Shown here: positions 5,936 through 64,000 of the stretch, in pieces
How positions within the stretch are numbered: position 1 is the first letter of the stretch
Layout: each line of letters starts with the position of its first letter
Notes under the pieces: model-generated
What the model was told of the DNA's origin: nothing
The model's input: only the letters and a program-made list of their open reading frames with translations
Databases searched by the model: none
Made by a program: the position numbers and the translations under genes
Assembly: GCF_964213995.1 (NCBI RefSeq)
Contig: NW_027591158.1
Location: forward strand, 1-64,000
DNA length: 64,000 nucleotides
Source of the DNA: Mustelus asterias
Lineage: Eukaryota
Direction: 5' to 3'

Positions 5936-7074
5936 AGGGCAATAGCAGCAGCACAGTCTCTGCCCAAAGGCTTCCCCAGTTCAGCTGCTCAGAGACACTG
6001 GGAATGTCTTCAAGTGGAAACTTCAGCTTCTCACATTCACCCCCTGTGTTCAGTCATTGTTTCCTAGACAAAGCAGTGAAGAACATTGGGAGAACATGCT
6101 TCCAGCTGAAGAATTCCACAAAATCAGCAGAATTGTAAAATTATGTCAACTCTTGTACTCTGATGTAAAGAAGTAATTTTATATCATGGGCAGTCCTCAT
6201 TTATTGGGAGACTAAGAGGCGTTACCCAATGACAGGATTGGCTTGTTGCTCAGTGTTGTCAAGAATTGGCCACCGAACAACATTGGTTGTAGCCCAATAA
6301 CTTTACCTGCCCCTGCCTGTCTTTCTCTGCGCCTCTGGTTCTCTGTTCACCTCGGTGTCCATCCTGCACTCTCAATATTTTGGCGGCTAATGTCTGTCTC
6401 CTCTCTCTGTGTCTCAAAGCCCCTCTCTCCCTCAACCGTTTTCCAGCAACGTGCAGAATTTAGAACATGCAATTTCTCCCAGTCTCCTATTTCAATAAAT
6501 TCCCCAAGCCCCATTAGGGGACAGCTGATGTGTTAGCCAAAATATCATCATGACAACTCTGAGGAAAGTTTAAACTTGAAGCAGGTGCACTGAAATCCGA
6601 CAATCTGTCAGATAAATGTGAGGTTGGAGTCAAATTTACGTCCTTTCGATGTGTGGAGAGAACTTTATTGAGAGTTCGAATCTTAGCAGTATTGCTGTGG
6701 TTTCAAATGTTGTAACACGAGTATAGTTTAACAGAAAGGCCTGGAACACTCAAAACAGGTAAAGCAATTAATTGATGAGGATTCAGACTGAAGTTCGTAT
6801 TAGTTCCGTGCATGGGTCCACCTGAATTTAAGTATATTATAACAAGAATCATGAGAACAAGAAAAAATACAGCAGCAAAATCCTGCAACAAGATCCTTCA
6901 GTAATCTGAGAATTCACTGATCTCCCATTTACCTCACATCACCACCAGAGGGCGATCCCTCACCGTGTTTTTGTGTTCACTGTTTCAGGAGCGGGTTCCA
7001 TAACACATTGATATGTTGGGGAGCCACAATCCAAGAGAACAGGATGAATTATTCAATTACCCGGTTAAAGGATA

Positions 7075-7305
7075 GAGAGCAGTAATGCAGGAGAACTCTG
7101 CTTTAATTGTTGGAATACACAATGATATGTTACAGAGCAGAAATATAAGAGAACTGCATTGCTTGTTGGAATACACAGTGATATGTTACAGAGCAGTAAT
7201 CCAGGAGAATTGGATTCATTGTTAGATTACACAGTGATATGTCACAGAGCAGTAATCAAGGAGAACTGCATTAATTGTTAGAATACACTGTAATATTTAC
7301 AGAGC
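7075..7305 (+). repeat. 4-5 degenerate copies of the 56-bp unit expanded at 50.8-54.2 kb
   Basis: cacagtgatatgttacagagcagtaatccaggagaa... repeated about every 56 bp. Confidence 0.9.
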
Positions 7306-7940
7306 AGATATGGATGCTAAATTTGCAGACAACACAAAGATAGGTAGGACGATAAATGATGAAGTGCGTGTGAAGATACGAAAAAGAAACATAAATAGGT
7401 TAAGTGAATTGGCAAAGCTCCGCCAAATTGAGTATAATGTGGTCAAATGTGAAAATGCCCCTATTGGCAGGATGAATATAAAATACACTTAATATTTAAA
7501 CGGTGAAAGATTACAAAATTCTGAGGTACAGAGAGATTGGGCTGTCCTAGGGCACGAATCGAAAGGGGCTAAGGTACAGGTATAGTAATTAATTAAAAAC
7601 GTCATAAAATATGATCATTCACTACGAGGGGATCTATTATAAAATAGGAAGGGTATGTTTCCGTTGTACGGGGCATTGGTGAGACCACCACCTGGAGTAT
7701 TGCGGACAATACGTATCTCCTTATCTAAAGAAAGATGGCAATGCGTTAAAAAACGTTCAGAGAAGGTTTGCTGTAATAGTATCCAGGTACGTGCGGGTTA
7801 TCTGTATCCGCGGTAAGAATATTGATGTTGGGTTTGTATCCACTTGAGTTTCGAAGACTCAGAGATAACTTCATTGAAACCTTTGAAACCATAAGGGGTA
7901 TTAACGGTGTGGATGTGGAGCGGCTATTCCCTCGTGTCCG
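7305..7940 (+). mobile_element. Degenerate CR1-like RT fragment
   Basis: KFADNTKIG and LGLYPLEFRRLR motifs with stops and frameshifts. Confidence 0.8.
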
Positions 7941-8253: not shown

Positions 8254-8724
8254 ATGTTCCTGATTCTAGTTATTGCACTGATCCCAGGTCAGTGATTCTG
8301 GTCACAGATTGTAAAGTATATCGCAAACCTTGTGCAATTTCCCTTTCCCAGCGCTGTGTGACTATCGTCTTCCTCTGTCTCCTAACCCGCTTTGTATCCG
8401 CTGTTTATTTTCAGAGATGAGTAATGGAGACTCAGTGTTCCAGTCAGAACCAGGAGTTGAAGCAGCAGAGGGTGAAGATTCAGCAATACCCTGCAGTTAC
8501 TCTGTGCCGAGTTCAGCTATACAACATGACCTGTTCTGGTATCGCCAGTATCCACACCGAGCTCCTCAGTATCTGCTCAGAGCCAATAGTTATGGGTTTA
8601 CCGATACGGCTCCCGGCTTTGGACACTTCAGCGGGAATCTCAACCAGACACAAAGCACTTTTCACTTGTCCATGAAAGATTTGAAGATGAGAGACAGCGC
8701 CGTGTATTACTGTGCACTGAGACC
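8254..8724 (+). CDS. TCR alpha/delta-type V segment V1 (leader 8254-8287, V exon 8415-8724)
   Basis: Leader MFLILVIALIP then G|gtcagt; acceptor ttttcag; DSVFQ...IPC...WYRQ...DSAVYYCALRP; 23-RSS follows. Confidence 0.92.
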
Positions 8725-8763
8725 CACAGTGAGTGAGGCTCCCGCGGGCCTCAGACAAAAAGT
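8725..8763 (+). other. RSS of V1: CACAGTG-23-ACAAAAAGT
   Basis: Heptamer, spacer and nonamer counted directly. Confidence 0.95.
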
Positions 8764-27781: not shown

Positions 27782-27820
27782 CACAGTGTTGGGTTACAGC
27801 GAAAACCCTGTACAAAAACC
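27782..27820 (+). other. RSS of V5: CACAGTG-23-ACAAAAACC
   Basis: Perfect consensus, counted directly. Confidence 0.95.
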
Positions 27821-28279
27821 TCAGCGAGTATTTACAACTCCATGAAGATGTTTTGATCACGAGTTCACGAAGGCGGCGATTCTATTTACCAGACAATTTG
27901 ACCTTGTTCAAATCATCATAGAAGCACTTTGGTAAATCTCGAGATTAAACCCCAGGCCGCGAATTATATAGTAAGCAGATACCAGGAGTATCCAGCTATC
28001 AGCTGAAGGATGCGCTCAGAAGTGGAGGTAATATAGCAGAAAATTACCGGCTGTTCATCCAGAATTGTTAACTCAGCTGAGCCCACGGACACCGACTCCT
28101 CGGCATTCGTTCCTATAACTCAATGCAGAATGGATCAAAGTCTGCTGAAGTTCATAACAAATGAGATGTAGAATAACCTCCACACAGACTCACTTAGCAA
28201 CACGACTATTGTTATAAATCCGGGACACAGAGACTCACCTCGCAGCACGAAGATAGTCTATTCCCACAGCTGACATTGG

Positions 28280-28875
28280 TGTATTGTGTGGTGGTGAACT
28301 GCCTTCTTGTGGTACCTGAGGTGCAGGTACACACACTGTGCTGTTAGTGAGGGAGTTCTAGTGATTTGACCCAGTGACCGTGAAGGAACATCGATATATT
28401 TCCATGTAGGGATGTAGAATAACTTGGAAGGGAACCTCGAGGTTGTGGTGTTCCCATGTGCCCGCTGCCCTTCTTCTCCTAGATGGCAGTGCTCGTGTGT
28501 TTGGATTGTGCTGCCTAAAAAAAAAACCTTGGTGAGTTGCTGCAGTGTATCCTGCAGATGGTGCACGCGGCTGTCACTGTTCGTCTGTGGTGGCAGGAAT
28601 GAATGTTCATGCAATGGGTAGCAATCAAGCGGGCTGATTTGTCCTGCATTCTGTCGAGCCTCTCGAGTGTGGTTGCAGCTACACTCATCCAAGCAAGTAG
28701 AGGGTATTCCATCTCACTCCTGACTTGTACCTTGTAGATGGTGGACAGGCTTTGGGGAGTCAGGAGGTGAGTTACTCGCCGCAGGATTCCTAACCTTTGA
28801 TCAGCTCTGGAAGCCATTGTATTTATATTCCTGGGTCCAGTTCAGTTTTCTGTCAACTCCCAGGATGTTGATGGG
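28280..28875 (-). mobile_element. LINE fragment (second CR1/L2-type family)
   Basis: QRLGILRRVTHLLTPQSLSTIYKVQVRSEMEY; a related piece lies at 36300-36640. Confidence 0.8.
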
Positions 28876-34949: not shown

Positions 34950-35282
34950 ATGCTCCGAATTTACAGACTCTCTTTGCTGTGTTTCACTCTGACCTGCACT
35001 GGGGTGACTGGAGCAGATGAGGTGATGCAGCTTCCTCGGCGGAAGGTTGTTAGTGAAGGGGGAACCGTATCCATGAACTGCACCACGATCACTACATTTA
35101 GCAACCTACATTGGTACAGACAGTCCCCGAATCAGCCACCCCAGCATCTGGTGATGGCCACAAGAGAAACCGATCTACACGAGGGGATCACAGCCTCAAT
35201 CGGCGGAGGCTACAAATTCAGCGCCCTGACTGTGAGAGACGCCGGAGTTACAGACACCGCCACCTATCTCTGCGCCGTGAGC
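34950..35282 (+). CDS. TCR V segment V7, single-exon leader+V
   Basis: Continuous ORF MLRIYRLSLLCFTLTCTGVTG-ADEVMQ...MNC...WYRQSP...TDTATYLCAVS with no intron. Confidence 0.88.
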
Positions 35283-35321
35283 CACAGTGTGACAAACACA
35301 GGGAGAGCCCATGCAAAAACC
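35283..35321 (+). other. RSS of V7: CACAGTG-23-GCAAAAACC
   Basis: Counted directly. Confidence 0.93.
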
Positions 35322-36931
35322 TGCATCGACAGTGAGAGCCACTCTGCTGTGTCTGCAGGAGCGGCAGAGTGAGTGATGGGATTATTTTTTAAAATCCGTA
35401 AAGAAAGGAAATGAGCGCAACACAAAATAAAACATACAATCTATTTATTGAAATCCCGTTAAAATGAAGATAGTTGAAAACAGATGGAGAAGAGGAACGA
35501 GGGAACATGTAAACTAGACTGAGTGAGAGGAAAACAGAACATAGGAAAGTTCAGTTATCATAGGAGAAGTGGACAGAAAATGAATAAACTGTTGAAATAG
35601 AAATGGAAGAGATTGGAAAGTGTGATAGACAGTTTAAAAATCAGGTAATATCATGAATAAAGAGGGGATGGCCTAGTGGCATCATCGTGAGATTATTAAC
35701 CCAGAAACTCAGTTAATATTCTGGGGACCCCGGTCCGAATTCCTGCACGGCAGGTGGTGAAACTTGAATTCAATAACAATTTAGAATCTACTGAAACCAT
35801 GAAACCATTGTAGATTGTCGGAAACACCCATCTGGTTCACTGATGTACTTTAGGGAAGGAAATCTGCCGCCCTTACCTTGTCTGGCCGACATGTGACTCC
35901 AGAGCCACCGCAATGTGGTTGACTCTCAACTGCCCTCCAACGAGAGCCCGTGACGCCTAAGTCTCACAAATGACTAAAATAAACGCTGATATTTACGAGA
36001 TATTTAAACGGCTGAATTTCCTGAAACATCTCCTAAAATCCGGGCACTGGAAACTGCCCTATCGACAAATTTGCACTTTGCTCATTATCCGCACATTGAA
36101 AGTTTCACAACCTGTGAACCTGTGATGGGTGTGTCGAGCTGCGGTTCCTAAGGGACCGTGTGAGAGAACTGGAACTGCAGCTCCGGGATCATCGTCTGGT
36201 TAGGGAAAATGAGGAGGTGACAGACAGGAGCTATCAGCAGGTGGTCACACCAGGGCCAAGGGAGGCAGACAAGTGGGTAAGTCTGGAGAATTCAATTCAC
36301 ACCCCTGACTTGTACCTTGGAGATGGTGGACAGGCTTTGGGGAGTCACGAGGCGAGTTACTCGCCACAGGATTCCTAACCTTTGATCTGCTCCGGTAGCC
36401 ACGGTATTCATATTCTTCGGTCCAGTTCAGCTTTCGGTCAACTCCCAGGATGTTGTTGGGGGTGGGGGAGAGGAAGGGGGGGAGCAGAGGGGAGGATTCC
36501 GCGATGGCAATGCCATTGAATATCAAGCAAAGTTCGTCAGATCCTCTTCTTTTGGAGACGGTCATTGCCTGGAACCTGTGTGACCTGAACGTTGCTTCCA
36601 CTTATCAGTCCAAACCTGAATATTGTCCAGGTCTTTCTGTATTTGTGCAGAGACCAAATGTCTGATTCCAGACAGTGTAGTATCATGTTTAAATTAAAGA
36701 ATGCGGATGATTTCCTCACCATAAAGCCCACACTCACTGAGCGACTGTTCCTTCAATCGGATTAGTTACATCCTGACTCTCAATATGTCTGAGAAAAGGA
36801 AAGTCGCTGTCAGGAATTGCAAAGCCCCGGGTAACCCCGCTCACCTGCTCCATTTCCTGCTCTAGTTCTGGCAGCTATTGCCTGCAGTCTGCTATTTGTA
36901 GGATTGCTGCAGCAACTGAAAACAGGCGTGA

Positions 36932-36970
36932 GGTTTTTGTACAGTGACGAGCGTCTTTCCTCTCAGTGTG
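36932..36970 (-). other. RSS of V8: CACACTG-23-ACAAAAACC
   Basis: The + strand reads ggtttttgt-23-cagtgtg. Confidence 0.93.
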
Positions 36971-37380
36971 GGCTGTATCGCACAGTAATACAGAGCGGCA
37001 TCCGCGCTCTCCGTGTTTTCAATAACCAACTGGCCCCGTTTGCCCGCAGTGGAAAGTTCCAATTCGAACCGGTCTTTTCTCTCTTTGCCATTCGATGATC
37101 TGCTTATTATCCACTCGAGTCTCTGACCGGGTTTTTGTCTGTACCAATACATTCCATAAATGCTGGACATCTCATAACTGCAGTTTATCAGCACCGAATC
37201 CCCGCTCTGGACTGTTCTCGCTGTGGGAGTTTGTGAAACTTGGTCCGAGCGACACCGATCTATAAAAAAACATTCATACAGTGAGACACTGGAGCAAAAT
37301 TATTATAAATAAATAGCTCCACAAATAAATATCCTGCGCTTACAAGTTAGCACCACCAGAATGATAAGGAACAGTTTCAT
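36971..37380 (-). CDS. TCR alpha/delta-type V segment V8 (leader 37380-37344, V exon 37259-36971)
   Basis: MKLFLIILVVLT then T|gtaagc; DQVSQTP...INC...WYRQKPG...ADAALYYCAIQP. Confidence 0.92.
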
Positions 37381-37879
37381 TTGCACCGTGTGATATAATA
37401 ACAATGTCAGTAAGAATACGGAGCACAGCTCACAGCAGAAGAGCATGGATTGAATCAACGTCTTCAACATTTGGCAAATGTAAGATGCACCAGATAAAGT
37501 TTCAGACACTTGGGTTTTCTGCAATCTGATTGGCTGGAATCAGACTCCGTGCTTCCGGTATCAGGATGTGGTTGTTGATCCGAAGCTGCTTCTCTTCCGG
37601 GTCACGTGTGAACAAATCAATTGTCCAAAAAACAGGACACTGCTTTACTGCAGTAACTGTCATTTATAAAAGTGGTTAAAGTTTAACTTCACCAATAAAG
37701 GCATGATTTTAAAATGAGGTTGCCCTCATTTTAAAGTTATGTATGATAAATGCGTGACCAATAATATGTTGGAAATATTGTTTCTCGATTTACTTTTGCG
37801 AAATATAATTGATTCCCCTTGTGTTTCAAACAGTCACATTTTCGCCACCTCTGAGGCACTCCACATGTCATTGCTATTT

Positions 37880-40416: not shown

Positions 40417-40455
40417 AGTTTTTGTATGAGGCCCGCGGGAGCCTCATTCACTGTG
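40417..40455 (-). other. RSS of V9: CACAGTG-23-ACAAAAACT
   Basis: The + strand reads agtttttgt-23-cactgtg. Confidence 0.95.
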
Positions 40456-40938
40456 GGTCTCAGTGCACAGTAATACACGGCGCTGTCTGGCATCTTCAAA
40501 TCTTTCATTGACAAGTGAAAAGTGCTTTGTGTCTGGTTGAGGTTCCCGCTGAAATGTTCAAAGCCGGGAGCCGTATCGTTAAACCCATAACTATCGGCTC
40601 TGAGGAGATACTGAGGAGCTCGGTGTGGATACTGGCGATACCAGAACAGGTCATGTTGTATAGCTGAACTCGGTACAGAGTAACTGCAGGGTATTGCTGA
40701 ATCTTCACCCTCTGCTGCTTCAACTCTTGGTTCTGACTGGAACACTGAGTCTCCATTGCTCATCTCTGAAAATAAACAGCGGACGCACAGCGGGTTAGGA
40801 GACAGAGGAAGACGATAGTCACACAGAGCTGGGAAAGGGAAATTGCACAAGGGTTGAAATATACTTTACAATCTGTGACCAGAATCACTGACCTGGGATC
40901 AGAGCAATAACCAGGGTCAGGAACATTTTCACCCCCAT
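40456..40938 (-). CDS. TCR alpha/delta-type V segment V9 (leader 40938 or 40926 to 40893, V exon 40765-40456), inverted paralog of V1
   Basis: MGVKMFLTLVIALIP then G|gtcagt; the V domain differs from V1 at about 5 residues. Confidence 0.92.
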
Positions 40939-41596
40939 GGTTCCAATCTGAGCTCCAGAATTAGGGAGGGTGATCTCTGTCTGAACGGGACCTGGAATGT
41001 GAGAAATTGAAAGAGTTAGCAAGGTGTGACGCGATTGGCTGGGATTTATTTTCCTCGCCCATTTTTATATCTGCAAAAAGTCACTCTGCAGAAGGCGACT
41101 GTGATGTTTGGTAAGTGATCAGAGAGCGCCCTCCCGTGGACAGTACCAGCGCATTGGAAACAGATGCAGAACGAAGAGCCCAGATATGTACAGTCTGAGA
41201 AATATAAAGACCCAGAAATATCTAGTTCAGGTACAACACGGACAAGAGGAAATAGCCGCTCCACATCCACACCATTAATACCCCTTCGGGTTTTAAGGCT
41301 TTGAGAAAGTTATCTCTCAATCTTCGAAACTCAGTGGATACAAATCCAGCATCAGTACCCTTCTGCTTATCCAGAAAACCCGCTCATACCTGGTAATACC
41401 TTCTCTGGACGTTTGCTAACGCATTACCGTCTTTCTATAGATAAGGAATCAAGTATTGTGCACAATACTCCAGATGTGATCTCTCCAATGCCCTACACAA
41501 CGGAAACATACTGGAATTTAGAAGAATGGGTGGAGATCAAATTGAGGAATACAAGATGACAAAAGGTATGGATAAAGTAGACGTGGAGTAGACGAC

Positions 41597-45927: not shown

Positions 45928-46260
45928 ATGGTCAGGATTGGCATCGACGTTTTGTTGTTTATCACTCTGATCTGCACGGGGATGACCGGAGAAGCTGAGT
46001 TGCTGCAGCTCCCTCCACGGATGGTTATCAGTGAAGCGAGAAATATATCCATGAACTGCACTATTTCCATTACGTTTGACATCGTGCGTTGGTACAAACA
46101 GCTCCCGAATCAGTCACCCCAGCATCTGGTGATGGCCACAAGAGGAACCGATCAACACGGGAGGATCACTGCTTCGATCGGTGAAGGCAGCAAACTCAGC
46201 ATCCTGACTGTGAGGGACGTACAGGTTTCAGACACTGCCACCTATCTCTGCGCCGTGAGG
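45928..46260 (+). CDS. TCR V segment V10, single-exon leader+V (paralog of V7)
   Basis: MVRIGIDVLLFITLICTGMTG-EAELLQ...MNC...WYKQLP...SDTATYLCAVR with no intron. Confidence 0.88.
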
Positions 46261-46299
46261 CACAGTGTAAAAAACACAGGCAGGTCCCGTGCCAAAACC
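46261..46299 (+). other. RSS of V10: CACAGTG-23-GCCAAAACC
   Basis: Counted directly. Confidence 0.9.
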
Positions 46300-46929
46300 T
46301 GCACCGCTTTCAAAAACCGCTCCGCAGAAATATCAGTGTTTCAACAAGCGCGGTATTAAATTCCAATGGTAAGGGGAATGAGAGCGAAACATTTCTTGAA
46401 TCAGAAAATTTTAAAAAGCTTAAAATGAAGAGAGTTGGGAATGTATTCAAAGAAAATGGAAGAGGTTACATGCAAATCAGAATGAAAGAAAGACAAAGCG
46501 AAAAAGTGCAGTAAGAATACGTAAAGAGCCGGACTGTATGACCTGAAGCCAACAGACAGCACGGCCTCCCAGTCTTTCCTGTCGTCTATCACACAAGTCT
46601 TGGACGACGGCGAGCGGGAGAGCCTGACAGACCGGTAGCTCTGGATGAGCTGACAAAGTCCCGTGTCTGCGTGGGTCTCCTCCGGGTGCTCCAGTTTCCT
46701 TCAACAGTCCAAAGATGTGCAGGTTAGTTTGATTGGCCATGATAAATTGACCCTAGTGTCAGGGGGATTAGCGGGGCAAATGTATGAGGCTACGGGACTA
46801 GGGCCTGGGTAGACTTGCGATAGGTACAGACTCGGTGGGCCGAATGGCATTTTTCTGTACTGTACAAATTCTATGATCTATGATTCTATTATGTGGATAT
46901 GTGCCAGTCTTTCCAGGTGACCGTGCGTG

Positions 46930-47533
46930 AACCTGTTTCCAATATGCGGCAGTGCTGTCCACGGGAGGGCGCTCTCTGATCACTTATGAAAAATCACGAT
47001 TCCCTTCAGAGGGAGCGACTTTTTGGTTGACTTTGGTTGACTTTTTGGTTCGGTTGATTGGCCATGCTAAAATTGCCCTTAGTGTCCTGAGATGTGTAGG
47101 TTAGAGGGATTAGTGGGTAAATATGTAGGGATATGGAGGTAGGGCCTGGGTGGGATTGTGGTCGGTGCAGACTCGATGGGCCGAATGGCCTCTTTCTGTC
47201 CTGTAGGGTTTCTTTTCTATGATTGAAGATGTAAAAATGGGCGGAGAGACGGAGTCACTTTCGACCTCATAACATCCCCCTGACTGTTTCAACTTCTCCA
47301 TTTCCAGGTCTTATGCAGACAGTGATCACTGCCTCTGTTTCTGGTGTTCAGACTGGAACTATGGGGGTGAAAGTCTGTCTGTCTCTGGCTATTGTCCTGA
47401 TCACAGGTTGGTCATTTTGAACCTTTGACTGAAATCCGCCAATCACCATATTCATTGCCCATTTCCATTTCTAGGCGATTATTCCGTTGTTGTTACTCCT
47501 TCTAACCCGCTGCGTGTCTGTTGTCTATTTTCA
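46930..47533 (+). pseudogene. Orphan V1-family promoter, leader (47361-47406) and intron; V exon missing
   Basis: Homologous to 8015-8413; MGVKVCLSLAIVLIT then G|gttggt; SINE piece inserted at about 47045-47225. Confidence 0.8.
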
Positions 47534-48006
47534 CTCAGTTATCCAGCCTGCAGACACACCAGCGAGTTCACACTGGGGAGAGGCCGTTCACCTGCTCTCA
47601 GTGTGGGGTGGGATTCACTCAGTCATCCCACCTGTGGATACACCAGCGAGTTCACACTGGGGAGAGGCCCTTCACCTGCTCTCAGTGTGGGGTGGGATTC
47701 ACTCAGTCATCCCACCTGTGGATACACCAGCGAGTTCACACTGGGGAGAGGCCGTTCACCTGCTCTCAGTGTGGGAAGGGATTCTGTGATTCATCCAGCC
47801 TGCTGAGACACCAGCGAGTTCACACTGGGGAGAGGTCATTCACCTGCTCTCAGTGTGGGAAGGGATTCTGTGATTCATCCAGCCTGCTGAGACACCAGCG
47901 AGTTCACACTGGGGAGAGGGCATTCACCTGCTCTCAGTGTGGGAAGGGATTCTGTGATTCATCCAGCCTGCTGAGACACCAGCGAGTTCACACTGGGGAG
48001 AGACCA
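47530..48006 (+). pseudogene. C2H2 zinc-finger array fragment (5 full and 1 partial finger, 84-bp repeats)
   Basis: ([28 protein letters not shown])n; no ATG in frame; both ends abut V-derived sequence. Confidence 0.85.
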
Positions 48007-48284: not shown

Positions 48285-48694
48285 ATGAAACTGTTCCTTA
48301 TCATTCTGGTGGTGTTAACTTGTAAGCGCAGGATATTTATTTCTGGAGCTATTTATTTATAATAATTTTGCTCCAGTGTCTCACTGTATGAATGTTTTTT
48401 TATAGATCGGTGTCGCTCGGACCAAGTTTCACAAACTCCCACAGCGAGAACAGTCCAGAGCGGGGATTCGGCGCTGATAAACTGCAGTTATGAGATGTCC
48501 AGCATTGATGGAATGTATTGGTACAGACAAAAACCCGGTCAGGGACTGGAGTGGATAATAAGCAGATCATCGAATGGCAAAGAGAGAAAAGACCGGTTCG
48601 AATTGGAACTTTCCACTGCGGGCAAACGGGGCCAGTTGGTTATTGGAAACACGGAGAGCGCGGATGCCGCTCTGTATTACTGTGCGATAGAGCC
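48285..48694 (+). CDS. TCR alpha/delta-type V segment V11 (leader 48285-48321, V exon 48406-48694), inverted duplicate of V8
   Basis: MKLFLIILVVLT then T|gtaagc; ...INC...WYRQKPGQGLEWII...YYCAIEP. Confidence 0.92.
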
Positions 48695-48733
48695 CACACT
48701 GAGAGGAAAGACGCTCGTCACTGTACAAAAACC
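48695..48733 (+). other. RSS of V11: CACACTG-23-ACAAAAACC
   Basis: Counted directly. Confidence 0.93.
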
Positions 48734-50199: not shown

Positions 50200-50570
50200 A
50201 GCACTGGAGTTGGGACGTCTTGTTGAAGTTGGACAAGACATTGGTAAGGTCACACTTGGAATTCTGTGTACAGTTCTGGTCACCCTATTATAGAAAGGAT
50301 ATTATTAAATTAGAAGGACTGCAGAAAAGATTTACGAGGATGCGACCGGGACTTGATTGTTTGAGTTATAAGGAGAGGCTGGATAGACTGGGACTTTTTT
50401 CTCTGGAGCGTAGGAGGCTGAGGTGTGATGTTATAGAGGTCTATAAAATAATGAGGGGCACAGATCAGCTCGATAGTCAATATATTTTCCCAAAGATAAG
50501 GAAGTCTAAAACCAGAGGGCATAGGTTTAAGGTGAGAGGGGAGAGATACAAAAGTTCCAGAGGGGCAATT
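50200..50570 (+). mobile_element. CR1-like LINE fragment
   Basis: KTLVRSHLEFCVQFWSP...TRGHRFKVRGERYK. Confidence 0.88.
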
Positions 50571-50576
50571 TATAAT

Positions 50577-50670
50577 TACTGGAGGATCTTGTTGCAGGAT
50601 TACGCTGCTGTATTTTTCTTATTCCTAAGAAAAATACAGCAGTGTATTCCTGCAACAAGATCCTCCAGTA
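50577..50670. repeat. Fold-back palindrome: 45-bp arms, 4-nt loop, 2 mismatches
   Basis: tactggaggatc...tttttctta-ttcc-taagaaaaat...gatcctccagta. Confidence 0.93.
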
Positions 50671-50794
50671 GTCTGAGAATTCACTGATCTCCCAAGCAGA
50701 GGCCATTTACCTCAGATCACCACCAGAGGGAGCGCCCTCACCGTGTTTGTGTGATCACGGTATCAGGAGTGGGTTCCATTACACATTGATACAG

Positions 50795-53700
50795 GGAAAC
50801 ATAAACCAGGAGAACTGGGTTAATTGTTGGATTACACAGTGATATGTCACAGAGCAGTAATCCAGGGGAACTGGATTAATTGTTGGATTACACAGTGATA
50901 TGTTACAGAGCAGTAATCCAGGGGAACTGGATTAATTGTTAGATTACACAGTGATATGTTACAGAGCAGTAATCCAGGGGAACTGGATTAATTGTTAGAT
51001 TACACAGTGATATGTTACAGAGCAGTAATCCAGGGGAACTGGATTAATTGTTAGATTACACAGTGATATGTTACAGAGCAGTAATCCAGGGGAACTGGAT
51101 TAATTGTTAGATTACACAGTGATATGTTACAGAGCAGTAATCCAGGGGAACTGGATTAATTGTTAGATTACACAGTGATATGTTACAGAGCAGTAATCCA
51201 GGGGAACTGGATTAATTGTTAGATTACACAGTGATATGTTACAGAGCAGTAATCCAGGGGAACTGGATTAATTGTTAGATTACACAGTGATATGTTACAG
51301 AGCAGTAATCCAGGGGAACTGGATTAATTGTTAGATTACACAGTGATATGTTACAGAGCAGTAATCCAGGGGAACTGGATTAATTGTTAGATTACACAGT
51401 GATATGTTACAGAGCAGTAATCCAGGGGAACTGGATTAATTGTTAGATTACACAGTGATATGTTACAGAGCAGGAATCCAGGGGAACTGGATTAATTGTT
51501 AGATTACACAGTGATATGTTACAGAGCAGTAATCCAGGAGAACTGGATTAATTGTTAGATTACACAGTGATATGTCACAGAGCAGTAATCCAGGGGAACT
51601 GGATTAATTGTTAGATTACACAGTGATATGTTACAGAGCAGTAATCCAGGGGAACTGGATTAATTGTTAGATTACACAGTGATATGTTACAGAGCAGTAA
51701 TCCAGGGGAACTGGATTAATTGTTGGATTACACAGTGATATGTTACAGAGCAGTAATCCAGGGGAACTGGATTAATTGTTAGATTACACAGTGATATGTT
51801 ACAGAGCAGTAATCCAGGGGAACTGGATTAATTGTTAGATTACACAGTGATATGTTACAGAGCAGTAATCCAGGGGAACTGGATTAATTGTTAGATTACA
51901 CAGTGATATGTTACAGAGCAGTAATCCAGGGGAACTGGATTAATTGTTAGATTACACAGTGATATGTTACAGAGCAGTAATCCAGGGGAACTGGATTAAT
52001 TGTTAGATTACACAGTGATATGTTACAGAGCAGTAATCCAGGGGAACTGGAGTAATTGTTAGATTACACAGTGATATGTTACAGAGCAGTAATCCAGGGG
52101 AACTGGATTAATTGTTAGATTACACAGTGATATGTTACAGAGCAGGAATCCAGGGGAACTGGATTAATTGTTAGATTACACAGTGATATGTTACAGAGCA
52201 GTAATCCAGGGGAACTGGATTAATTGTTAGATTACACAGTGATATGTTACAGAGCAGTATTCCAGGGGAACTGGATTAATTGTTAGATTACACAGTGATA
52301 TGTTACAGAGCAGTAATCCAGGAGAACTGGATTAATTGTTAGATTACACAGTGATATGTTACAGAGCAGTAATCCAGGAGAACTGGATTAATTGTTAGAT
52401 TACACAGTGATATGTTACAGAGCAGTAATCCAGGAGAACTGGATTAATTGTTAGATTACACAGTGATATGTCACAGAGCAGTAATCCAGGGGAACTGGAT
52501 TAATTGTTAGATTACACAGTGATATGTTACAGAGCAGTAATCCAGGGGAACTGGATTAATTGTTAGATTACACAGTGATATGTTACAGAGCAGTAATCCA
52601 GGGGAACTGGATTAATTGTTGGATTACACAGTGATATGTTACAGAGCAGTAATCCAGGGGAACTGGATTAATTGTTAGATTACACAGTGATATGTCACAG
52701 AGCAGTAATCCAGGGGAACTGGATTAATTGTTAGATTACACAGTGATATGTCACAGAGCAGTAATCCAGGGGAACTGGATTAATTGTTAGATTACACAGT
52801 GAAATGTCACAGAGCAGTAATCCAGGGGAACTGGATTAATTGTTAGATTACACAGTGATATGTCACAGAGCAGTAATCCAGGTGAACTGGATTAATTGTT
52901 AGATTACACAGTGATATGTCACAGAGCAGTAATCCAGGGGAACTGGATTAATTGTTAGATTACACAGTGATATGTCACAGAGCAGTAATCCAGGGGAACT
53001 GGATTAATTGTTAGATTTCACAGTGATATGTTACAGAGCAGTAATCCAGGGGAACTGGATTAATTGTTAGATTACACAGTGATATGTTACAGAGCAGTAA
53101 TCCAGGAGAACTGGATTAATTGTTAGATTACACAGTGATATGTCACAGAGCAGTAATCCAGGGGAACTGGATTAATTGTTGGATTACACAGTGATATGTT
53201 ACAGAGCAGTAATCCAGGGGAACTGGATTAATTGTTAGATTACACAGTGATATGTCACAGAGCAGTAATCCAGGGGAACTGGATTAATTGTTGGATTACA
53301 CAGTGATATGTCACAGAGCAGTAATCCAGGGGAACTGGATTAATTGTTGGATTACACAGTGATATGTTACAGAGCAGTAATCCAGGGGAACTGGATTAAT
53401 TGTTAGATTACACAGTGATATGTTACAGAGCAGTAATCCAGGGGAACTGGATTAATTGTTAGATTACACAGTGATATGTTACAGACCAGTAATCCAGGGG
53501 AACTGGATTAATTGTTAGATTACACAGTGATATGTCACAGAGCAGTAATCCAGGGGAACTGGATTAATTGTTAGATTACACAGTGATATGTTACAGAGCA
53601 GTAATCCAGGGGAACTGGATTAATTGTTGGATTACACAGTGATATGTCACAGAGCAGTAATCCAGGGGAACTGGATTAATTGTTAGATTACACAGTGATA

Positions 53701-54162
53701 TGTTACAGAGCAGTAATCCAGGGGAACTGGATTAATTGTTAGATTACACAGTGATATGTTACAGAGCAGTAATCCAGGGGAACTGGATTAATTGTTGGAT
53801 TACACAGTGATATGTTACAGAGCAGTAATCCAGGGGAACTGGATTAATTGTTAGATTACACAGTGATATGTTACAGAGCAGTAATCCAGGGGAACTGGAT
53901 TAATTGTTAGATTACACAGTGATATGTTACAGAGCAGTAATCCAGGGGAACTGGAGTAATTGTTAGATTACACAGTGATATGTTACAGAGCAGTAATCCA
54001 GGGGAACTGGAGTAATTGTTAGATTACACAGTGATATGTCACAGAGCAGTAATCCAGGGGAACTGGGTTAATTGTTAGATTACACAGTGATATGTTACAG
54101 AGCAGTAATCCAGGGGAACTGGATTAATTGTTAGATTACACAGTGATATGTCACAGAGCAGA
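50795..54162 (+). repeat. 56-bp tandem satellite, 60 copies, each containing CACAGTG
   Basis: Unit cacagtgatatgttacagagcagtaatccaggggaactggattaattgttagatta; heptamers run from 50835 to 54139, exactly 59 x 56 bp apart. Confidence 0.97.
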
Positions 54163-55003
54163 AATGGATGTTAAGTTTGCTGATGACACAACGATAGATT
54201 GGAAAATAAATGGTGATGAGGATGTAAGGGGACGATGAAGGGACATAAATAGTTCAGTGAATTGGCAAAGCTTCGCCAAATTGTGTTTAATGTGGGCGGA
54301 TGTGAAAATGTACATTTTGGCCTGATGAATATAAAATACACTTAATAACTAAATGGTGCGAGATCACAACATTCTGAGGGACAGAGGGATTGGGCCGTCC
54401 TTGGGCATGAATCAAAAGGGGCTAATATACAAGTACAGCAATTAATTAGAAATGTCATAAAATGTTACCATTTATGACGAGGGAATGAATTATTAAATAG
54501 GACGGGTCAGAAATTCCTCAGAAATAGGAGCACAATTAGGCCATTTGGCCCATCGAGTCCGTTCCGTCATTCCATCATGGCTGATATGCTCCTCATCCCC
54601 ATTTTCCTGCCTTCTCCCCATAACCCTTCAACCCATCACCAATTAAAAATCTGTCTAGCCCCTCCTTAAATTTACTCACTGTCCCAGCCTCCTCCGCTCA
54701 TTGGGGTAGCGAGTTCCACAGATTCACAACCCTTTGGGAGAAGTAGTTTCTCCTCAACTCTGTTTTAAATTTGCTGCCCCTTATCCTAAGACTGTGATCT
54801 CTCGTCCTAGAATGTCCCACAAGAGGAAGCATCCTCTCCACGTCTACTTTATCCGTACCTTTTATCATCTTGTCAATTTGATCTCTCATTCTTCTAAATT
54901 CACGTATGTTTCCATTGTGCAAGGCATTGGAGAGACCACATCTGGAGTATTGTGTACAATACTTGATTCCTTATCTATAGAAAGATGGTAATGTGTTAGA
55001 AAA
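54163..55003. mobile_element. Degenerate CR1 fragment (+) with a nested CR1 fragment (-, about 54520-54900)
   Basis: Paralog of 7305-7755; nested piece encodes FKTELRRNYFSQRVVNLWNSLPQ. Confidence 0.8.
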
Positions 55004-57194
55004 CTGCCCCAGGCTCCTGTGAATTCCTCCAACTCGTATTTAATGTAGACTCGAATTGATTTATTTTAAAACGGTTTATTTTAAACATATTGAGACCGGC
55101 CTGAAAGTGGTAGACTGGGGACTATCACACAGATACTCTCAATCTGATGGTGTGGTGGTGTTGTCACTGGACTGGGAGCCCAGAGTCCGAGGGTAATGCA
55201 CTGGGCAGCCAGCTTCCAATCACACCACAGCAAATAGTGAAATCTCAATTCAATAAAAAACTGTCATTAAAGGCCTGGTGATGACCATGAAACCATTGCC
55301 GTTAAAACCCATTTGGTTCCCCGATGCCCTTTAGAGAAGGAATTTATCCGACTCCAGAATAAGACCAGAGGATGCTGGAAAATCTCAGCAGGTCTGGTAG
55401 GACCTGTAAGTCTTTCATGTGAATCTAGGTCCACACGATGTGGTTGACTCTGGAATGGCCCAGCAAGCAAGCTGCTCAGTTCAAGGGCAGTTAGGGATAG
55501 ACCACAAGCAAGGAACTGGGAACAATCTGCACTAAATATTGGCCAGTTATTTTCAGTCTGGAAATGTAAAGCTGCCGTTTCGCTCTCAGTCAGGAACAGA
55601 TCCCAGTTTTACACCAATCTCTGATTTAACAGCACATTGGAGAGCTGGTGCAGACACGATGGGCCAAATGGCCTCCTGCACCAACACTATTCTGTGAAAT
55701 CTTAGAAAAACAGGGAAATGCTGGAATTAAACTCAGCAGGTTCGGCAGCATCTGTGCAGAGAGAGAGAGAGAAACAGAGTTAACATTTCAGCTCTGTGAC
55801 CTTTCCTGTGAACTGGGGAAAGTTCGAAATGTAACAGGTTTGGAGAAAGGGGCGGGTGGGACAGGGACTAAAGGAAGGTCTGTGAGAGGGTGGAAGACAG
55901 GAGAGATTGAATGAGAGAAAAGTGAACCCCCCCCCCCCGAGCCAAAGGGAATGGAGATGGAGCGAGAGAAGGAACAGAGAAACAGAAGCTGTGTCTGGAG
56001 CAGGGGGGCTGCCGACTGAAAGAAAGAAAAATGAAACAAGCAAAGAAAAAGAAGCAGAACGGGCTGAGAGTTCACTCTCTGAAACTGTTGGACTGAATCT
56101 TGAGTCCAGAAGGCTGTAAAGTGTGGAGGGGGTGGGTGAGTGGGGGGGGATGTTCTCCTGGACCTGCTCCAGACCCTGGTTAAAACAGTAACCAGTAGAT
56201 CCAGGATGGGGGGGGGGGGTCACTCTGGCTGATCTGCTGTGGTCTTGTCTGTGCCCAGCTCAATCTGATCTGTGCAACTCAAACACACTGGAGAGTGTTT
56301 GATAGGAAATGAAGATTGTGAATCTAACTCAGTGTGTGAACTCCCTCAGAGGCTCCCACACTGCATTCCAACAAACTGAGCTGGATTGGACTGAATGGGA
56401 AGTCATGGGAATGGAGCCCTCACTGACTTCATGCATCAAGTACATTTCTGGATGGAAATTAGCTGCATCGACTCCAGCCTGGTTGTTGGTGTGAAACAGG
56501 AGCTGATGTCTATCTGTGTGTGTGTGTGTGTGTGTGAGTCCCTGCGTGCAGCTCCCAGAGAGTTTAAAATCCTGCATCTGTCTCTCTGCAGAGCTGCTGG
56601 TTAAAGACACACTTACAGCATTTATCAGACAGAAACTTCACTCTCATTCTCTCCCTCCCCTCCCCCAGCCAGTGCTTCTGTTTAAAAAACAGTTTAAACG
56701 CTTTATGTTGCAGCTCTGATCTCTGGTGAATCATTAACCACACACACACATTCAGACACCCGGACAGACAGATTGTAAATCAGAAGTGGGAGTTGTAAAT
56801 GCAGCAACAAAGAACTTTGCAAGATATTGTTTCAGTTCAGGCAACTTAAGGAAAAGTGAATTTTGCAAGAATCAGCAAAGGGTGCAAACCTGTAGCCGAT
56901 GGAGTCCTGGATGAACAAGTTGTACAATCCACATTCAGACCTGGCCTCTCTCTCTCTCTGGCAGTGCAGGGCTGCGAGTTAATTGAAAGCCATCTTCTCT
57001 CAGCTCCCAGTGCTGGTGATGTGAAGCTGGGAGTGGGGGGGGAGGGAGAGCCTTGGGATAAACCATTTGCCTGGTGCTCACTAACCCCCACACACACAAA
57101 CACCCCCCACACACTCAGAGACAGGTTGGTGTTGGACTGGCCCATACCTGGAGGAGGTGTGTTCAGGTGAGGTGTAGGAGATGTGGTTGGATAA

Positions 57195-57470
57195 GGATTG
57201 ATTGGGGAGGTGTGGGACTCAGTGAGGTTATAAAAAGGCTGGCGATGCATTGTCCAGTCTCTCTCTACACGTGGGTTGGTAAGTATCAGGTAAGCTGTGT
57301 CTTTGTGAGTGAGTGAGTCAGTGTGTGCTTGCATGGAGTTCCAGCTCTGATATTTTAACCCCCCCTTTCCCAGCACAAAACCCCTGGCCAAGGATCTGTC
57401 TCCCCCACCATGGGAGAGGGGATGGAAGGAGTTGGAGAGATCACCGAGGGAAAACATGTGCGATGGTGAG
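57195..57470 (+). promoter_or_regulatory. Candidate TATA promoter and first exons of an unidentified gene
   Basis: ATTGG at 57201, TATAAAA at 57229, donors ggtaagt and caggtaag at about 57278-57294, acceptor ccctttcccag ending 57373, ccaccATGG at 57410, donor gtgagt at 57466. Confidence 0.4.
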
Positions 57471-58470
57471 TATGAACCTCTTCACTTTCTGTCTACACCT
57501 TTCCCGCCTCAGCCCTGCTTTTCTCTCTGTTTGCAGCCTCCTCTCAATCTCCCTCTCCATCTTTCTCTCTCTCAACCTTTCTCTCTCTCAATCTCTCTGT
57601 CTTTCTCTCTCTAAATCTTTCTCTCTCTAAATCTTTCTCTCTCTAAATCTNNNNNNNNNNNNNNNNNNNNNNNNNNNNNNNNNNNNNNNNNNNNNNNNNN
57701 NNNNNNNNNNNNNNNNNNNNNNNNNNNNNNNNNNNNNNNNNNNNNNNNNNNNNNNNNNNNNNNNNNNNNNNNNNNNNNNNNNNNNNNNNNNNNNNNNNNN
57801 NNNNNNNNNNNNNNNNNNNNNNNNNNNNNNNNNNNNNNNNNNNNNNNNNNNNNNNNNNNNNNNNNNNNNNNNNNNNNNNNNNNNNNNNNNNNNNNNNNNN
57901 NNNNNNNNNNNNNNNNNNNNNNNNNNNNNNNNNNNNNNNNNNNNNNNNNNNNNNNNNNNNNNNNNNNNNNNNNNNNNNNNNNNNNNNNNNNNNNNNNNNN
58001 NNNNNNNNNNNNNNNNNNNNNNNNNNNNNNNNNNNNNNNNNNNNNNNNNNNNNNNNNNNNNNNNNNNNNNNNNNNNNNNNNNNNNNNNNNNNNNNNNNNN
58101 NNNNNNNNNNNNNNNNNNNNNNNNNNNNNNNNNNNNNNNNNNNNNNNNNNNNNNNNNNNNNNNNNNNNNNNNNNNNNNNNNNNNNNNNNNNNNNNNNNNN
58201 NNNNNNNNNNNNNNNNNNNNNNNNNNNNNNNNNNNNNNNNNNNNNNNNNNNNNNNNNNNNNNNNNNNNNNNNNNNNNNNNNNNNNNNNNNNNNNNNNNNN
58301 NNNNNNNNNNNNNNNNNNNNNNNNNNNNNNNNNNNNNNNNNNNNNNNNNNNNNNNNNNNNNNNNNNNNNNNNNNNNNNNNNNNNNNNNNNNNNNNNNNNN
58401 NNNNNNNNNNNNNNNNNNNNNNNNNNNNNNNNNNNNNNNNNNNNNNNNNNNNNNNNNNNNNNNNNNNNNN

Positions 58471-60129
58471 CCCCCCCTCCTGAGCTTTGCCCCCCCCCCC
58501 TCCTGGCTTTGCCCCCCCCCCCTCCTGGGCTTGCCCCCCCCCCTCCTGGGCTTTGCCCCCCCCCTCCTGGGCTTTGCCCCCCCCCTCCTGGGCTTTGCCC
58601 CCCCCCTCCTGGGCTTTGCCCCCCCCCTCCTGGGCTTTGCCCCCCCCCCCTCCTGGGCTTTGCCCCCCCCCCCTCCTGGGCTTTGCCCCCCCCCTCCTGG
58701 GCTTTGCCCCCCCCCTCCTGGGCTTTGCCCCCCCCTCCTGGGCTTTGCCCCCCCTCCTGGGCTTTGCCCCCCCCCCCTCCTGGGCTTTGCCCCCCCCCCT
58801 CCTGGCTTTGCCCCCCCCCCTCCTGGGCTTTGCCCCCCCTCCTGGGCTTTGCCCCCCCCTCCAGGGCTTTGCCCCCCCCCCTCCAGGGCTTTGCCCCCCC
58901 CCCCCCTCCTGGGCTTTGCCCCCCCCCCCTCCTGGGCTTTGCCCCCCCCCCCCCTCCTGGGCTTTGCCCCCCCCCCCTCCTGGGCTTTGCCCCCCCCCCT
59001 CCTGGGCTTTGCCCCCCCCCTCCTGGGCTTTGCCCCCCCCCTCCTGGGCTTTGCCCCCCCCCCCTCCTGGGCTTTGCCCCCCCCTCCTGGGCATTGCCCC
59101 CCCGCCCCTGGGCATTGCCCCCTCCTGGGCATTGCCCCCCCCGCCCCTGGGCATTGCCCCCCCCGCTTGCCCCCCCCCCCGCTTGCCCCCCCCCCCGCTT
59201 GCCCCCCCCGCTTGCCCCCCCCCCGGACTGCCCGCCCCCCGACTGCCCGCCCCCCCCGACTGCCCGCCCCCCCCCGACTGCCCGNNNNNNNNNNNNNNNN
59301 NNNNNNNNNNNNNNNNNNNNNNNNNNNNNNNNNNNNNNNNNNNNNNNNNNNNNNNNNNNNNNNNNNNNNNNNNNNNNNNNNNNNNNNNNNNNNNNNNNNN
59401 NNNNNNNNNNNNNNNNNNNNNNNNNNNNNNNNNNNNNNNNNNGACTGCCCGCCCCCGACTGCCCGCCCCCCGACTGCCCGCCCCCCGACTGCCCGCCCCC
59501 GACTGCCCGCCCCCCGACTGCCCGCCCCCCGACTGCCCGCCCCCCGACTGCCCGCCCCCGACTGCCCGCCCCCCGACTGCCCGCCCCCCGACTGCCCGCC
59601 CCCCGACTGCCCGCCCCCCGACTGCCCGCCCCCCGACTGCCCGCCCCCCGACTGCCCGCCCCCCGACTGCCCGCCCCCGACTGCCCGCCCCCCGACTGCN
59701 NNNNNNNNNNNNNNNNNNNNNNNNNNNNNNNNNNNNNNNNNNNNNNNNNNNNNNNNNNNNNNNNNNNNNNNNNNNNNNNNNNNNNNNNNNNNNNNNNNNN
59801 NNNNNNNNNNNNNNNNNNNNNNNNNNNNNNNNNNNNNNNNNNNNNNNNNNNNNNNNNNNNNNNNNNNNNNNNNNNNNNNNNNNNNNGACTGCCCGCCCCC
59901 CGACTGCCCGCCCCCCGACTGCCCGCCCCCCGACTGCCCGCCCCCCGACTGCCCGCCCCCCGACTGCCCGCCCCCGACTGCCCGCCCCCCGACTGCCCGC
60001 CCCCCGACTGCCCGCCCCCCCGACTGCCCGCCCCCGACTGCCCGCCCCCCGACTGCCCGCCCCCCGACTGCCCGCCCCCCGACTGCCCGCCCCCCGACTG
60101 CCCGCCCCCCGACTGCCCGCCCCCCGACT
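58471..60129. repeat. C-rich minisatellites (Cn-tcctgggctttg)n and (gactgcccgccccc(c))n with gaps
   Basis: Directly visible tandem units flanked by N runs. Confidence 0.95.
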
Positions 60130-61960: not shown

Positions 61961-64000
61961 GGGATTGAAATCTGGGATTACATTGGAGCAGGGATCACTG
62001 GGAATACCCCCTCCCCCTGACACACAGACCACTAACCCTCCGTGTAAAAGCCCCACCAGTCTATCTGTGAATAAAAATGAACGACCAAGACACGGGGACT
62101 TTTATTAATATTTTTCTCTCTGGTTATAGCTCTTGTCCGAGGATTCCTCACGGCAAAACTATTCGCTCTCTGCATCGCCAAAGTTTCCAAAGGAATTCTC
62201 CTTGGAAGAGAGAAAGAGAAAATAAAGTGAAATTTGATTAAACACAAAACAAAAGCTGATTTAAAAACAATAAAAGGCACAGCAAGATCCCAGGACTTGC
62301 TGAAATTCACAATCTCACTGGGGGAGGTGGGGGAAACATTCATTTTCACCTCCTCATTATTAAACCCTGACAAAATGGGAACACGTTTCAAATGCAATGA
62401 ACTTCCAACTGCCTCCTGACTGTCCCGATATTGAATTTATTAAACACTTCAAAGCATTCTGGGGGCTTTACTCCAGAGACAGGCCAGTGAATAAACACAG
62501 GAGACCCCAATGAAGTTCCCACTTCTATCAGTCACCTCTCTCCCCTCACTCTGTTTCTCCCTCTCCGTCTCTTCCACACTTCCCCCCCAGATCTCTATCT
62601 GTCCAATACCCCGTCTCTGCTCCTGTCTCTGGATAACCTGTCCTGATCTCTGCTCTGTTTCTCTATCTCGAGGCGAATCTGGATTGAAATGCTCTCTCTA
62701 AGTTTCTGTCTGACCGTTTAAAATAAAACTCACAATCAAAAGGGAAATGAGAAGGGGGCGGGAGCTGGAAAATCCACAATCCCACCCTGAAGCGGCTGCT
62801 TCACATTTTATTGAACCATTGAATTCAGTCACTTAAACCCTGTTGGGGAATTAAGCGAATGCAAAAGTGCTGCTGAGATTTAGGCCGTGAAGTGAGGTCT
62901 AGTCACAGAGGCTGCATTATTCCTCAGGTAGAAAGAACGAACCCCCCTCTCTCCCACCCCCCAGTTAAACAGAACAATCTTCTCCATCCACACCCACAAA
63001 TCCCAGCGCCCTGTCTAAAAACACAAGCAGGACTCTGGGATTGAGAACAAGCCTTTCCCCCAGGCTCAGGAATTTGAATTTCAGCTCCCTCTCCCTCCCG
63101 AGTGCTTCACAGTGAGAGAGAGAGAGAGACTGGGAATGCTGCAATCAGGATCCCACAGGGAGTCCCACACTGCAGGAGGACACCCCCCACCCCCAGAGAC
63201 TCTGTCTCTATCCCCCTACCCCCCCTCCCCTGAGCCCCCCCACACTCCCCACCCATTCTCTGTTCCTCTCTCTCTACCCCACCCTCCTTCCTCTCCATCT
63301 TTTCATGTTTAAAGTGTGGGGCGCTGTCACAGTGCAGGGAATATGGGGCGGGGAGGAGGGCACAGCAAGATCCCACACACACAGTCTGGGCAGGGCCAGA
63401 TACAAAGTGATTTTTAAGTGAGGATTGGGCTAAAGTGAGTGGGCAATGAGGGAACCACACTTCTCCCTCTCTCTCCCTTGCTCCCCCCCTCCATCTCTTC
63501 CCCCACCCCAAATAAAAATAATGACAAGTCACTCCAGGATTGGGGCTGTTTGTACATTCAATATGAACAGGGAACCTTCCACTTCGAGCACAGTCACACC
63601 TCTCCCATTCCCTCTGTCTCTCGCTGTTTCTTTCTCTCTGCCTGTTTCTCTGCCTCTATCTCTGAACCTGTCCAGCCCCCTCTGTGTCTCTTTTGCTTTC
63701 CCCCCAGATCTATATATATCCAAACCCCATCTCTGCCCCGGTCTCTCCTACTCTGGATAATCTGTCCTGATCTCTGCTCTGTTTCTCCGTCTGGGGATGA
63801 ATGGGGATTAAAATGCTCTCTCTGATAAGTTTCTGTCTGACCGTTTCAAATAATGACGTGTTGTGGGCCACGCTTGCTATTTCTCAGTGATTTCCGTGGG
63901 GAAATGGGGAGGGAAGCTCCTCCTGCAAAGCCAGATCTCTCTCTCACTGCAATGTATTTTCAAACACAACAGCACAGATTCAGCCTCAGTTACACAGTCG

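Follow-up and report, generated by a model that had tools for sequence, protein, structure and literature searches.

The window analysed here, a 64,000-nucleotide stretch of Mustelus asterias DNA (NCBI RefSeq assembly GCF_964213995.1, contig NW_027591158.1, positions 1 to 64,000, forward strand), contains a series of antigen-receptor V genes and, to the right of the last of them, an array of 56-bp tandem repeats whose units resemble a recombination signal sequence with a 12-bp spacer (12-RSS). We think it probable that this array is a neutral minisatellite, or variable-number tandem repeat (VNTR), that was born and expanded within the locus, and that its likeness to a moderate cryptic 12-RSS is fortuitous. 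A neutral satellite was among the readings entertained in an earlier note on this DNA, and we favor it for reasons other than the weak nonamer invoked there: the expansion lies in a duplicate without a V gene, and the motif is not preferentially conserved (coordinates of features are collected in Table 1).

The array holds 60 CACAGTG heptamers, all perfect and on the forward strand, from 50835 to 54139, with successive heptamers 56 bp apart in 59/59 intervals; Tandem Repeats Finder (TRF) delimits it at 50802-54165 (60.1 copies, 98% matches, 0% indels), in agreement with the earlier description of 60 perfect heptamers and no net length change over 59 periods. The accompanying count of 60 units stands for 59 complete ones; the 60th is truncated at ~23 bp, where long interspersed nuclear element (LINE) sequence takes over, and an additional degenerate unit (unit 0, at 50782) had gone uncounted. 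Each unit consists of CACAGTG, 12 bp, and GCAGTAATC, which together make up a 28-bp half resembling a cryptic 12-RSS, and of a 28-bp linker after it. As had been stated for most units, the 12-bp spacer leads to a nonamer-position sequence with a 5/9 match to the consensus: this is GCAGTAATC in 55/60 units, and the spacer reads ATATGTTACAGA in 44/60, ATATGTCACAGA in 15/60, and AAATGTCACAGA in 1/60. An 8-bp hairpin, previously attributed to every unit, is real, spanning unit positions 24-44 (with its left arm overlapping the last five bases of the nonamer) and forming the minimum-energy structure of the unit (-6.4 kcal/mol; z=-2.9, with 0/200 shuffles folding equally well; the single-unit value is used, since the dimer z of -4.9 is inflated by the repeat). 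It is not universal: both arms are intact in 52/59 complete units, with variants at unit positions 24, 26, 41, and 42. A structured RNA was rejected as an identity for the array: an Rfam scan of 50400-55200 gave 0 matches within it and 9 on a 45-bp fold-back to its left, all below the gathering score.

Pairwise divergence among long-array units is 2.0%, and 28/59 units are identical to the consensus. Ten columns vary, with private and clustered variants in irregular order, and variants are common to adjacent units more often than in shuffled order (10 shared, p=0.010), which fits local duplication. Interstitial minisatellites and VNTRs with variant-repeat structure form a general class, and the array resembles its members in having tens of head-to-tail units within the 10-100-bp range, an interstitial position between unique flanks common to one paralog, variant units clustered by local duplication, and a short paralog; it departs from the class in being AT-rich (38% GC) and in carrying an RSS look-alike in its unit. 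That the assembler inflated a short array to this copy number is scarcely credible: the window does contain six N gaps in repetitive sequence, and nearly half of the units are identical, but no gap falls within the array, both of its ends join unique flanks matching the paralog, and the variable columns just described are irregularly ordered.

A second, older array of the same unit, overlooked in the earlier note, lies at 7004-7307 (~5.5 units), upstream of the V1 gene, and all 62 unit matches within the window fall inside these two paralogous arrays. Copy number comes from one haplotype; ~5.5 versus 60 units is a difference between paralogs and not allelic variation. The sister array has a perfect heptamer in 2/6 slots. 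Its left flank is identical to that of the long array at 123/138 positions (50627-50781 versus 6863-7000, 89%) and its right flank at 277/345 (54162-54507 versus 7309-7654, 80%), the latter belonging to a reverse-transcriptase (RT) fragment that we take to be from a CR1-type LINE. Unit 0 and the unit that opens the 7-kb array are paralogs, both having CACATTG, and the last units of the two arrays enter the LINE at the same point; the ~6-unit repeat is therefore older than the duplication. The paralogous flanks have diverged by 11-20%, versus 2.0% among long-array units, and the recurrent long-array variants C14, A33, and G51 are also found in 7-kb units. The 7-kb block runs on into the V1 promoter and gene; the 51-kb duplicate ends at 55004, ahead of the V promoter, and has no V gene. 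Low unit divergence, variant sharing between neighbors, and a V-less flank together indicate that the 60-mer is a recent expansion of internal units in the V-less duplicate. The V9 cassette, which lacks an array, has its LINE flank and nested insertion in common with 54836-55004 (92%). Derivation of the unit from LINE ORF2 was rejected, in that alignments to two other RT copies of the window begin at, or a few bases before, the KFADD motif and never reach the unit. The 7-kb paralog lacks the fold-back with which the duplicated block begins on its left; the left arm of the fold-back is nearer to that paralog than the right arm is, so we regard it as old and not as an assembly echo, and the Rfam matches there are of miRNA type.

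In the history that the sequence shows, a ~6-unit repeat with a CTCF-like module on its left and an old LINE fragment on its right stood upstream of a V1-family gene, and this cassette was then duplicated (copies at 7 kb, 41 kb, and 51 kb). In the 51-kb duplicate, which stops before the V gene, the internal units recently expanded to 60 copies, perhaps by slippage or unequal exchange, and this expansion may have been tolerated because no V promoter lies downstream. The likeness to an RSS would have arisen in the unit by chance and been carried along passively as the copies multiplied.

Selection on the RSS-like part is not detectable. Differences in the sister array (5/6 units, the truncated sixth left out) amount to 5/35 in the heptamer (14%), 8/60 in the spacer (13%), 6/45 in the nonamer (13%), and 27/140 in the linker (19%), with no preferential conservation of heptamer plus nonamer over the rest (p=0.48, low power). 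In the long array, 0/7 heptamer columns vary (p=0.23, low power), an invariance attributable to recent expansion; 3/9 nonamer columns vary, none toward the consensus in the 59 complete units, and the only signal-improving variant is in the truncated last unit. Within this low power, neither array shows a signal conserved above its flanks, as a deleting element would, and sister units s4 and s5 hint the other way. Kappa RS/Kde and T cell receptor (TCR) deltaRec/psiJalpha each consist of one conserved signal under regulation, which removes a C region or locus. The array has in common with them that it places an RSS in an antigen-receptor locus with no coding segment beside it; it differs in showing no sign of conservation, regulation, or a defined partner. 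A selected, multimerised decoy or deleting signal of this kind at the V-array boundary seems to us very improbable, notwithstanding its 12/23 complementarity to all 11 V RSSs of the window, its invariant heptamer (60/60), its location beside a CTCF-like site where the V run ends, and the conservation of the RSS halves of sister units s4 and s5. Besides the two test results, the expansion occupies a broken duplicate that has no V gene and is surrounded by rearranged fragments in a patchwork, the V9 cassette does without an array, and known deleting elements are single signals. The sink, decoy, or deleting element suggested in the earlier note therefore finds no support: an older repeat has expanded in a V-less duplicate without preferential conservation, and a repeat as RAG sink has its precedent in mouse gamma-satellite (PMC2193808).

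How good the signal is was judged with a position weight matrix (PWM) built from the 11 V RSSs of the window, which are all 23-RSSs, and without spacer terms. On it, the unit scores 12.4 bits, of which 0.2 come from the nonamer, compared with 20-27 for the V RSSs (leave-one-out). A perfect heptamer with a nonamer match of at least 5/9 at 12 or 23 bp occurs in 0.13% of 100,000 shuffles of the unit and in 0.27% of 8,092 56-mers from the window, and the 60 copies count as one event; the resemblance is uncommon, yet unremarkable after a genome scan. From the density of passing 12-type cryptic RSSs (cRSSs) given in PMC2193808 (4,746 in >10.5 Mb of mammalian DNA, about one per 2.2 kb), we calculate that ~2.5% of 56-bp units would hold one. 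The heptamer is a CAC-initiated consensus heptamer in 60/60 units. The nonamer matches ACAAAAACC at only 5/9 positions, compared with 7-9/9 for V nonamers, and the coding side is the previous linker or, for unit 0, the CTCF-like module; unit 0 itself has an 8/9 nonamer, behind a 10-bp spacer that falls short of what a 12-RSS requires. The unit was also read on the minus strand and at 23-bp spacing, and these registers were discarded, all of their nonamer scores being negative and those searched being absent from the top-1000 nonamers of PMC12711392 Table S2. Within the window, no V, D, or J segment that the array might serve was found by tblastn, hidden Markov model (HMM) search, or J-motif scan, and that candidate role was likewise rejected.

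The nonamer is nonetheless moderate, not weak as the earlier note had stated. GCAGTAATC keeps C2, A3, A6, A7, and C9 and has purine-A/T-purine (RWR; G-T-A) at positions 4-6, which arises by chance in 13% of sites; its positions 8-9 (TC) depart from the noncanonical consensus NNNRWRWCT. Table S2 of PMC12711392, which concerns the 23-RSS context, lists the top 1000 among 262,144 predicted nonamers; it includes the one-mismatch neighbor ACAGTAATC (~360th) and 4/5 distinct V nonamers of the window, but neither GCAGTAATC nor its shifted registers. There ACAGTAATC has a value of -36.7, and an A1-to-G change costs 0.7, which would give GCAGTAATC about -37.4 if effects are additive, an indirect figure that belongs to the 23-RSS context; the threshold for a functional cryptic 12-RSS on the recombination information content scale for 12-RSSs (RIC12) is about -40. 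The heptamer-proximal spacer is favorable (CACAGTG followed by AT). According to PMC7337519, two features of the unit, a broken A-tract and C-to-T at nonamer position 8, reduce paired-complex formation or synapsis, while a third, C-to-T at spacer position 4, doubled paired-complex formation. With C2, A3, A6, A7, C9, and RWR in place, occasional RAG cutting is plausible, and the unit is probably a moderate cryptic 12-RSS that RAG can cleave at a low level.

Several observations weigh against a neutral origin with a fortuitous signal. Of 2,195 nonarray CAC sites at 12-bp spacing, a single one scores above the unit; random 56-mers equal it in only 0.1-0.3% of cases; and among 7 long-period repeat families compared, it comes first (12/16 matches, with 10/16 for the next). 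CACAGTGAT is listed second among AT-spacer sequences in SARP-seq Table 1 of PMC9723617, which also gives as active two variants found in the sister array, CACAATGAT and CACATTGAT. CAC is kept in 5/6 sister slots, so that a count of two perfect heptamers in six overstates the decay. The RSS halves (28 bp) of s4 and s5 show 0 and 1 differences from the long array, compared with 3 and 4 in their linkers, and the single RSS-half difference of s5 is a variant shared with the long array; this is a post hoc subset, and gene conversion could account for the match too. Unit 0, with 8/9 at 10 bp, is alone among 189 non-V heptamer-like sites (spacers 9-14), where 0.2 were expected. Finally, the distance from the first perfect heptamer to a predicted CTCF-like site is 102 bp.

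Some of these facts would suit a founder unit that was a genuine 12-RSS, the relic of a lost D or J segment or of a germline rearrangement, which decayed and was then amplified neutrally. This account touches only the origin, is compatible with neutral expansion, and strikes us as doubtful. It can point to the CACATTG-10-ACATAAACC arrangement of unit 0, to a 6/9 nonamer at 13 bp in s1 of the paralog, and to the setting in an antigen-receptor locus of a shark, a group in which germ-line rearrangement has been reported (PMC2193156). However, an expectation of 0.2 is not significant, and s1 shares two nonconsensus bases of the nonamer region with the amplified unit, so that by parsimony the better nonamer of unit 0 would be derived, together with the deletion of its spacer to 10 bp. 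The coding side holds the CTCF-like module and no V, D, or J sequence or second RSS, and none of the 9 GTG-CAC sites in the window is a heptamer-to-heptamer signal joint, for which reason the idea of the array as a signal-joint relic was also dropped.

A neutral origin could also have produced, by accident, a RAG hotspot or fragile site, at which 60 moderate 12-RSSs beside a CTCF-like site and 2 kb from V genes would together be cut so often that V genes are removed or inverted in a measurable share of thymocytes. We hold this to be unlikely, although the heptamer with its AT is near optimal, the nonamer has RWR at positions 4-6 and a top-1000 neighbor, the T at spacer position 4 favors pairing, and there are 60 copies. 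Moreover, in PMC2193808, 12-cRSSs with poor nonamers recombine at 0.4-0.6% in plasmids, versus 0.7% for Jbeta2-2 (Table III), and satellite cRSSs are cut in RAG-induced cells. On the other side, GCAGTAATC in all its registers falls outside the top-1000 list that includes most V nonamers, the broken A-tract and the T at nonamer position 8 lower paired-complex formation, and RWR alone is a 13% chance event per site. At mouse Tcrd, furthermore, all off-target CAC joins together make up ~1% of junctions and start from the recombination center, not from pairing with the V region by a V gene (PMC4995090).

The partners for any such event are 11 V exons (8 on the plus and 3 on the minus strand), each with a 23-type RSS by tblastn and HMM search, as the earlier note had it. 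Spacers are 23 bp in 9/11, with one of 22 and one of 24, and the heptamer is CACAGTG in 6/11. The two unusual spacers, both with perfect nonamers, belong to V4 (23546; 24 bp) and V6 (31633; 22 bp); the other heptamers are CACACTG in four V genes and CACAGCG in one. The array had been placed at the edge of the V array, which holds as far as the window extends: by tblastn and HMM, no V exon lies right of 48698 in it. Under neutral expansion, RAG may occasionally pair a unit with a V 23-RSS in thymocytes, as its biochemistry would allow, at low frequency and with little consequence. By the 12/23 rule and orientation, pairing of the rightward-pointing array signals with the eight plus-strand V RSSs would give inversion, and pairing with the V3, V8, or V9 RSS deletion; all array-V products would be nonproductive, and 12/12 pairing inside the array would be disfavored.

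The V exons are 68-77% identical to Scyliorhinus proteins, one of them named "T cell receptor alpha chain-like," and match a Mustelus asterias gene model at 94%; these names, with the 23-RSS pattern, point to a TCR alpha/delta locus. V11 alone as a query found no homologue, and a PDB search returned generic immunoglobulin V matches only. The Mustelus asterias gene model LOC144489293 (P0135) also matches 57374-57466 and 62131-62238 (97-100%), implying a related scaffold on which a V gene precedes the same right-hand block; the model joins a V6-like exon to those two pieces and is probably a spurious prediction that reflects shared locus order. The J-motif scan of the window gave 5 hits, 0 of them with an RSS visible upstream. 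The top nonarray 12-RSS-like site, at 57298-57325 on the minus strand (CACACTG-12-ACAAAGACA, 17.9 bits), lies in simple-repeat sequence with no adjoining J motif. V cassettes are duplicated in both orientations (7653-9712 versus 41511-39446; 36641-37676 versus 49024-48003; also 18424-19943 versus 27107-28649 and 34973-35328 versus 45951-46306), and V8 and V11 form a recent inverted pair (97% identity). At 46950-48006 on the plus strand, directly preceding the V11 promoter, a cassette has the promoter, leader, and intron of the V1 family with the V exon replaced by a C2H2 zinc-finger repeat of 84-bp period; judged by eye, the nearest splice acceptors put the leader out of frame with the zinc fingers. 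An intact single-ORF GPR139-like G protein-coupled receptor lies within the V array (12889-13977, minus strand) and belongs to a large shark-specific expansion (2050 hits), the named best matches of the ORF being all from sharks or rays. Other tandem repeats include 69-bp arrays at 678-1076 and 1745-3816, more diverged than the 56-bp array, and C-rich 15- and 21-bp repeats at 57651-60129, interrupted by N gaps and G-rich on the opposite strand.

The module to the left of the array recurs, the window having five copies, among them more distant ones near 17078, 30236, and 43825; every copy surrounds a CTCF-like core and has a V exon 1.1-2.2 kb away. In all, the window has 12 CTCF-like matches versus 1.24 expected, the sites being predictions from a consensus. 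They lie at 5485, 6942, 16346, 17078, 23611, 27007, 30223, 31696, 43812, 45189, 45684, and 50720 (weaker ones at 8040, 20308, 41139, and 46959), either ahead of V promoters or no more than ~65 bp away from the RSS heptamers of V4 and V6. This suggests that a shark TCR locus, as in mouse, has V-associated CTCF sites. That a decayed 12-RSS beside such a site was amplified into a 60-fold RAG target, capturing scanning RAG or pairing with V 23-RSSs as a satellite-type deleting or decoy element, appears decidedly improbable.

Table 1. Features in and around the 56-bp array and its paralogs (window coordinates)
Feature	Position	Strand	Remarks
Paralogous block	6863..7654	+	CTCF-like module (core 6942), sister array 7004-7307, same LINE fragment
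V1 exon and 23-RSS	8429..8763	+	Heptamer at 8725; gene after the short sister array
V9 cassette	40452..41588	-	Inverted duplicate of V1, 90% over 1.2 kb; no array
V11 exon and 23-RSS	48417..48733	+	Heptamer at 48695; closest V to the array, whose first perfect heptamer is 2140 bp farther right
45-bp fold-back inverted repeat	50577..50670		96% complementary, 4-nt loop; left end of duplicated block
~150-bp conserved module	50627..50781	+	CTCF-like core 50720-50733
Unit 0, degenerate first unit	50782..50834	+	CACATTG, 10 bp, ACATAAACC
Expanded 56-bp minisatellite	50835..54161	+	59 complete units and a truncated 60th
Decayed 5'-truncated LINE RT fragment	54162..54507	+	Begins immediately upstream of the KFADD motif
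Nested antisense LINE 3' fragment	54510..54903	-	Right junction common to the 41411-41588 copy, absent from the 7-kb copy
LINE fragment resumes	54904..55004	+	V1/V9-cassette homology stops at 55004, before the V promoter

Taken together, the array is a VNTR by the features of that class that can be tested, falls short of a bona fide 12-RSS in its nonamer and coding side, and cannot be filed as a deleting element. A cRSS in a tandem repeat and the idea of a sink are already known: the cRSSs of mouse gamma-satellite, a 234-bp repeat, recombine in plasmids and yield RAG-induced signal ends, and were proposed as substrates of illegitimate rearrangement or as safe sites for RAG breaks (Cowell et al. 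2003, PMC2193808). Gamma-satellite makes up ~6% of the mouse genome and is 23-type; the array, unlike it, is 3.4 kb long and interstitial, lies within a TCR V cluster, and carries a putative signal of 12-type. It also resembles the nongene RSS-like sites inside TCR loci at which off-target joins occur (PMC4995090; bioRxiv 10.64898/2026.09.01.748595), whose low-frequency use at mouse Tcrd depends on orientation and on CTCF boundaries and loop domains, and whose use, according to the latter source, is poorly predicted by local features; unlike those dispersed single sites, it comprises 60 near-identical tandem sites on one strand. The array is unreported in the literature surveyed on shark TCR loci, shark satellites, cRSSs in repeats, and shark CTCF (subscription papers on nurse shark TCR alpha/delta lay outside this scope), and searches with short words of the unit returned, by title and abstract, only unrelated papers.

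If neutral, the array is an ordinary VNTR and one more case of a repeat carrying cryptic RSSs. Were it instead a 60-fold RAG target, V inversion or deletion would be frequent enough to shape the repertoire or to buffer off-target cutting. With 60 tandem 12-type sites and a paralog of two perfect units in the same locus, the window offers a natural test of whether multiplicity and a nearby CTCF-like site make a hotspot of a moderate cryptic RSS, and the comparison has a bearing on the proposal of 2003 that satellites are a "safe sink." Heavy use of the array would make repeat expansion a way in which new regulatory elements of V(D)J recombination can arise.

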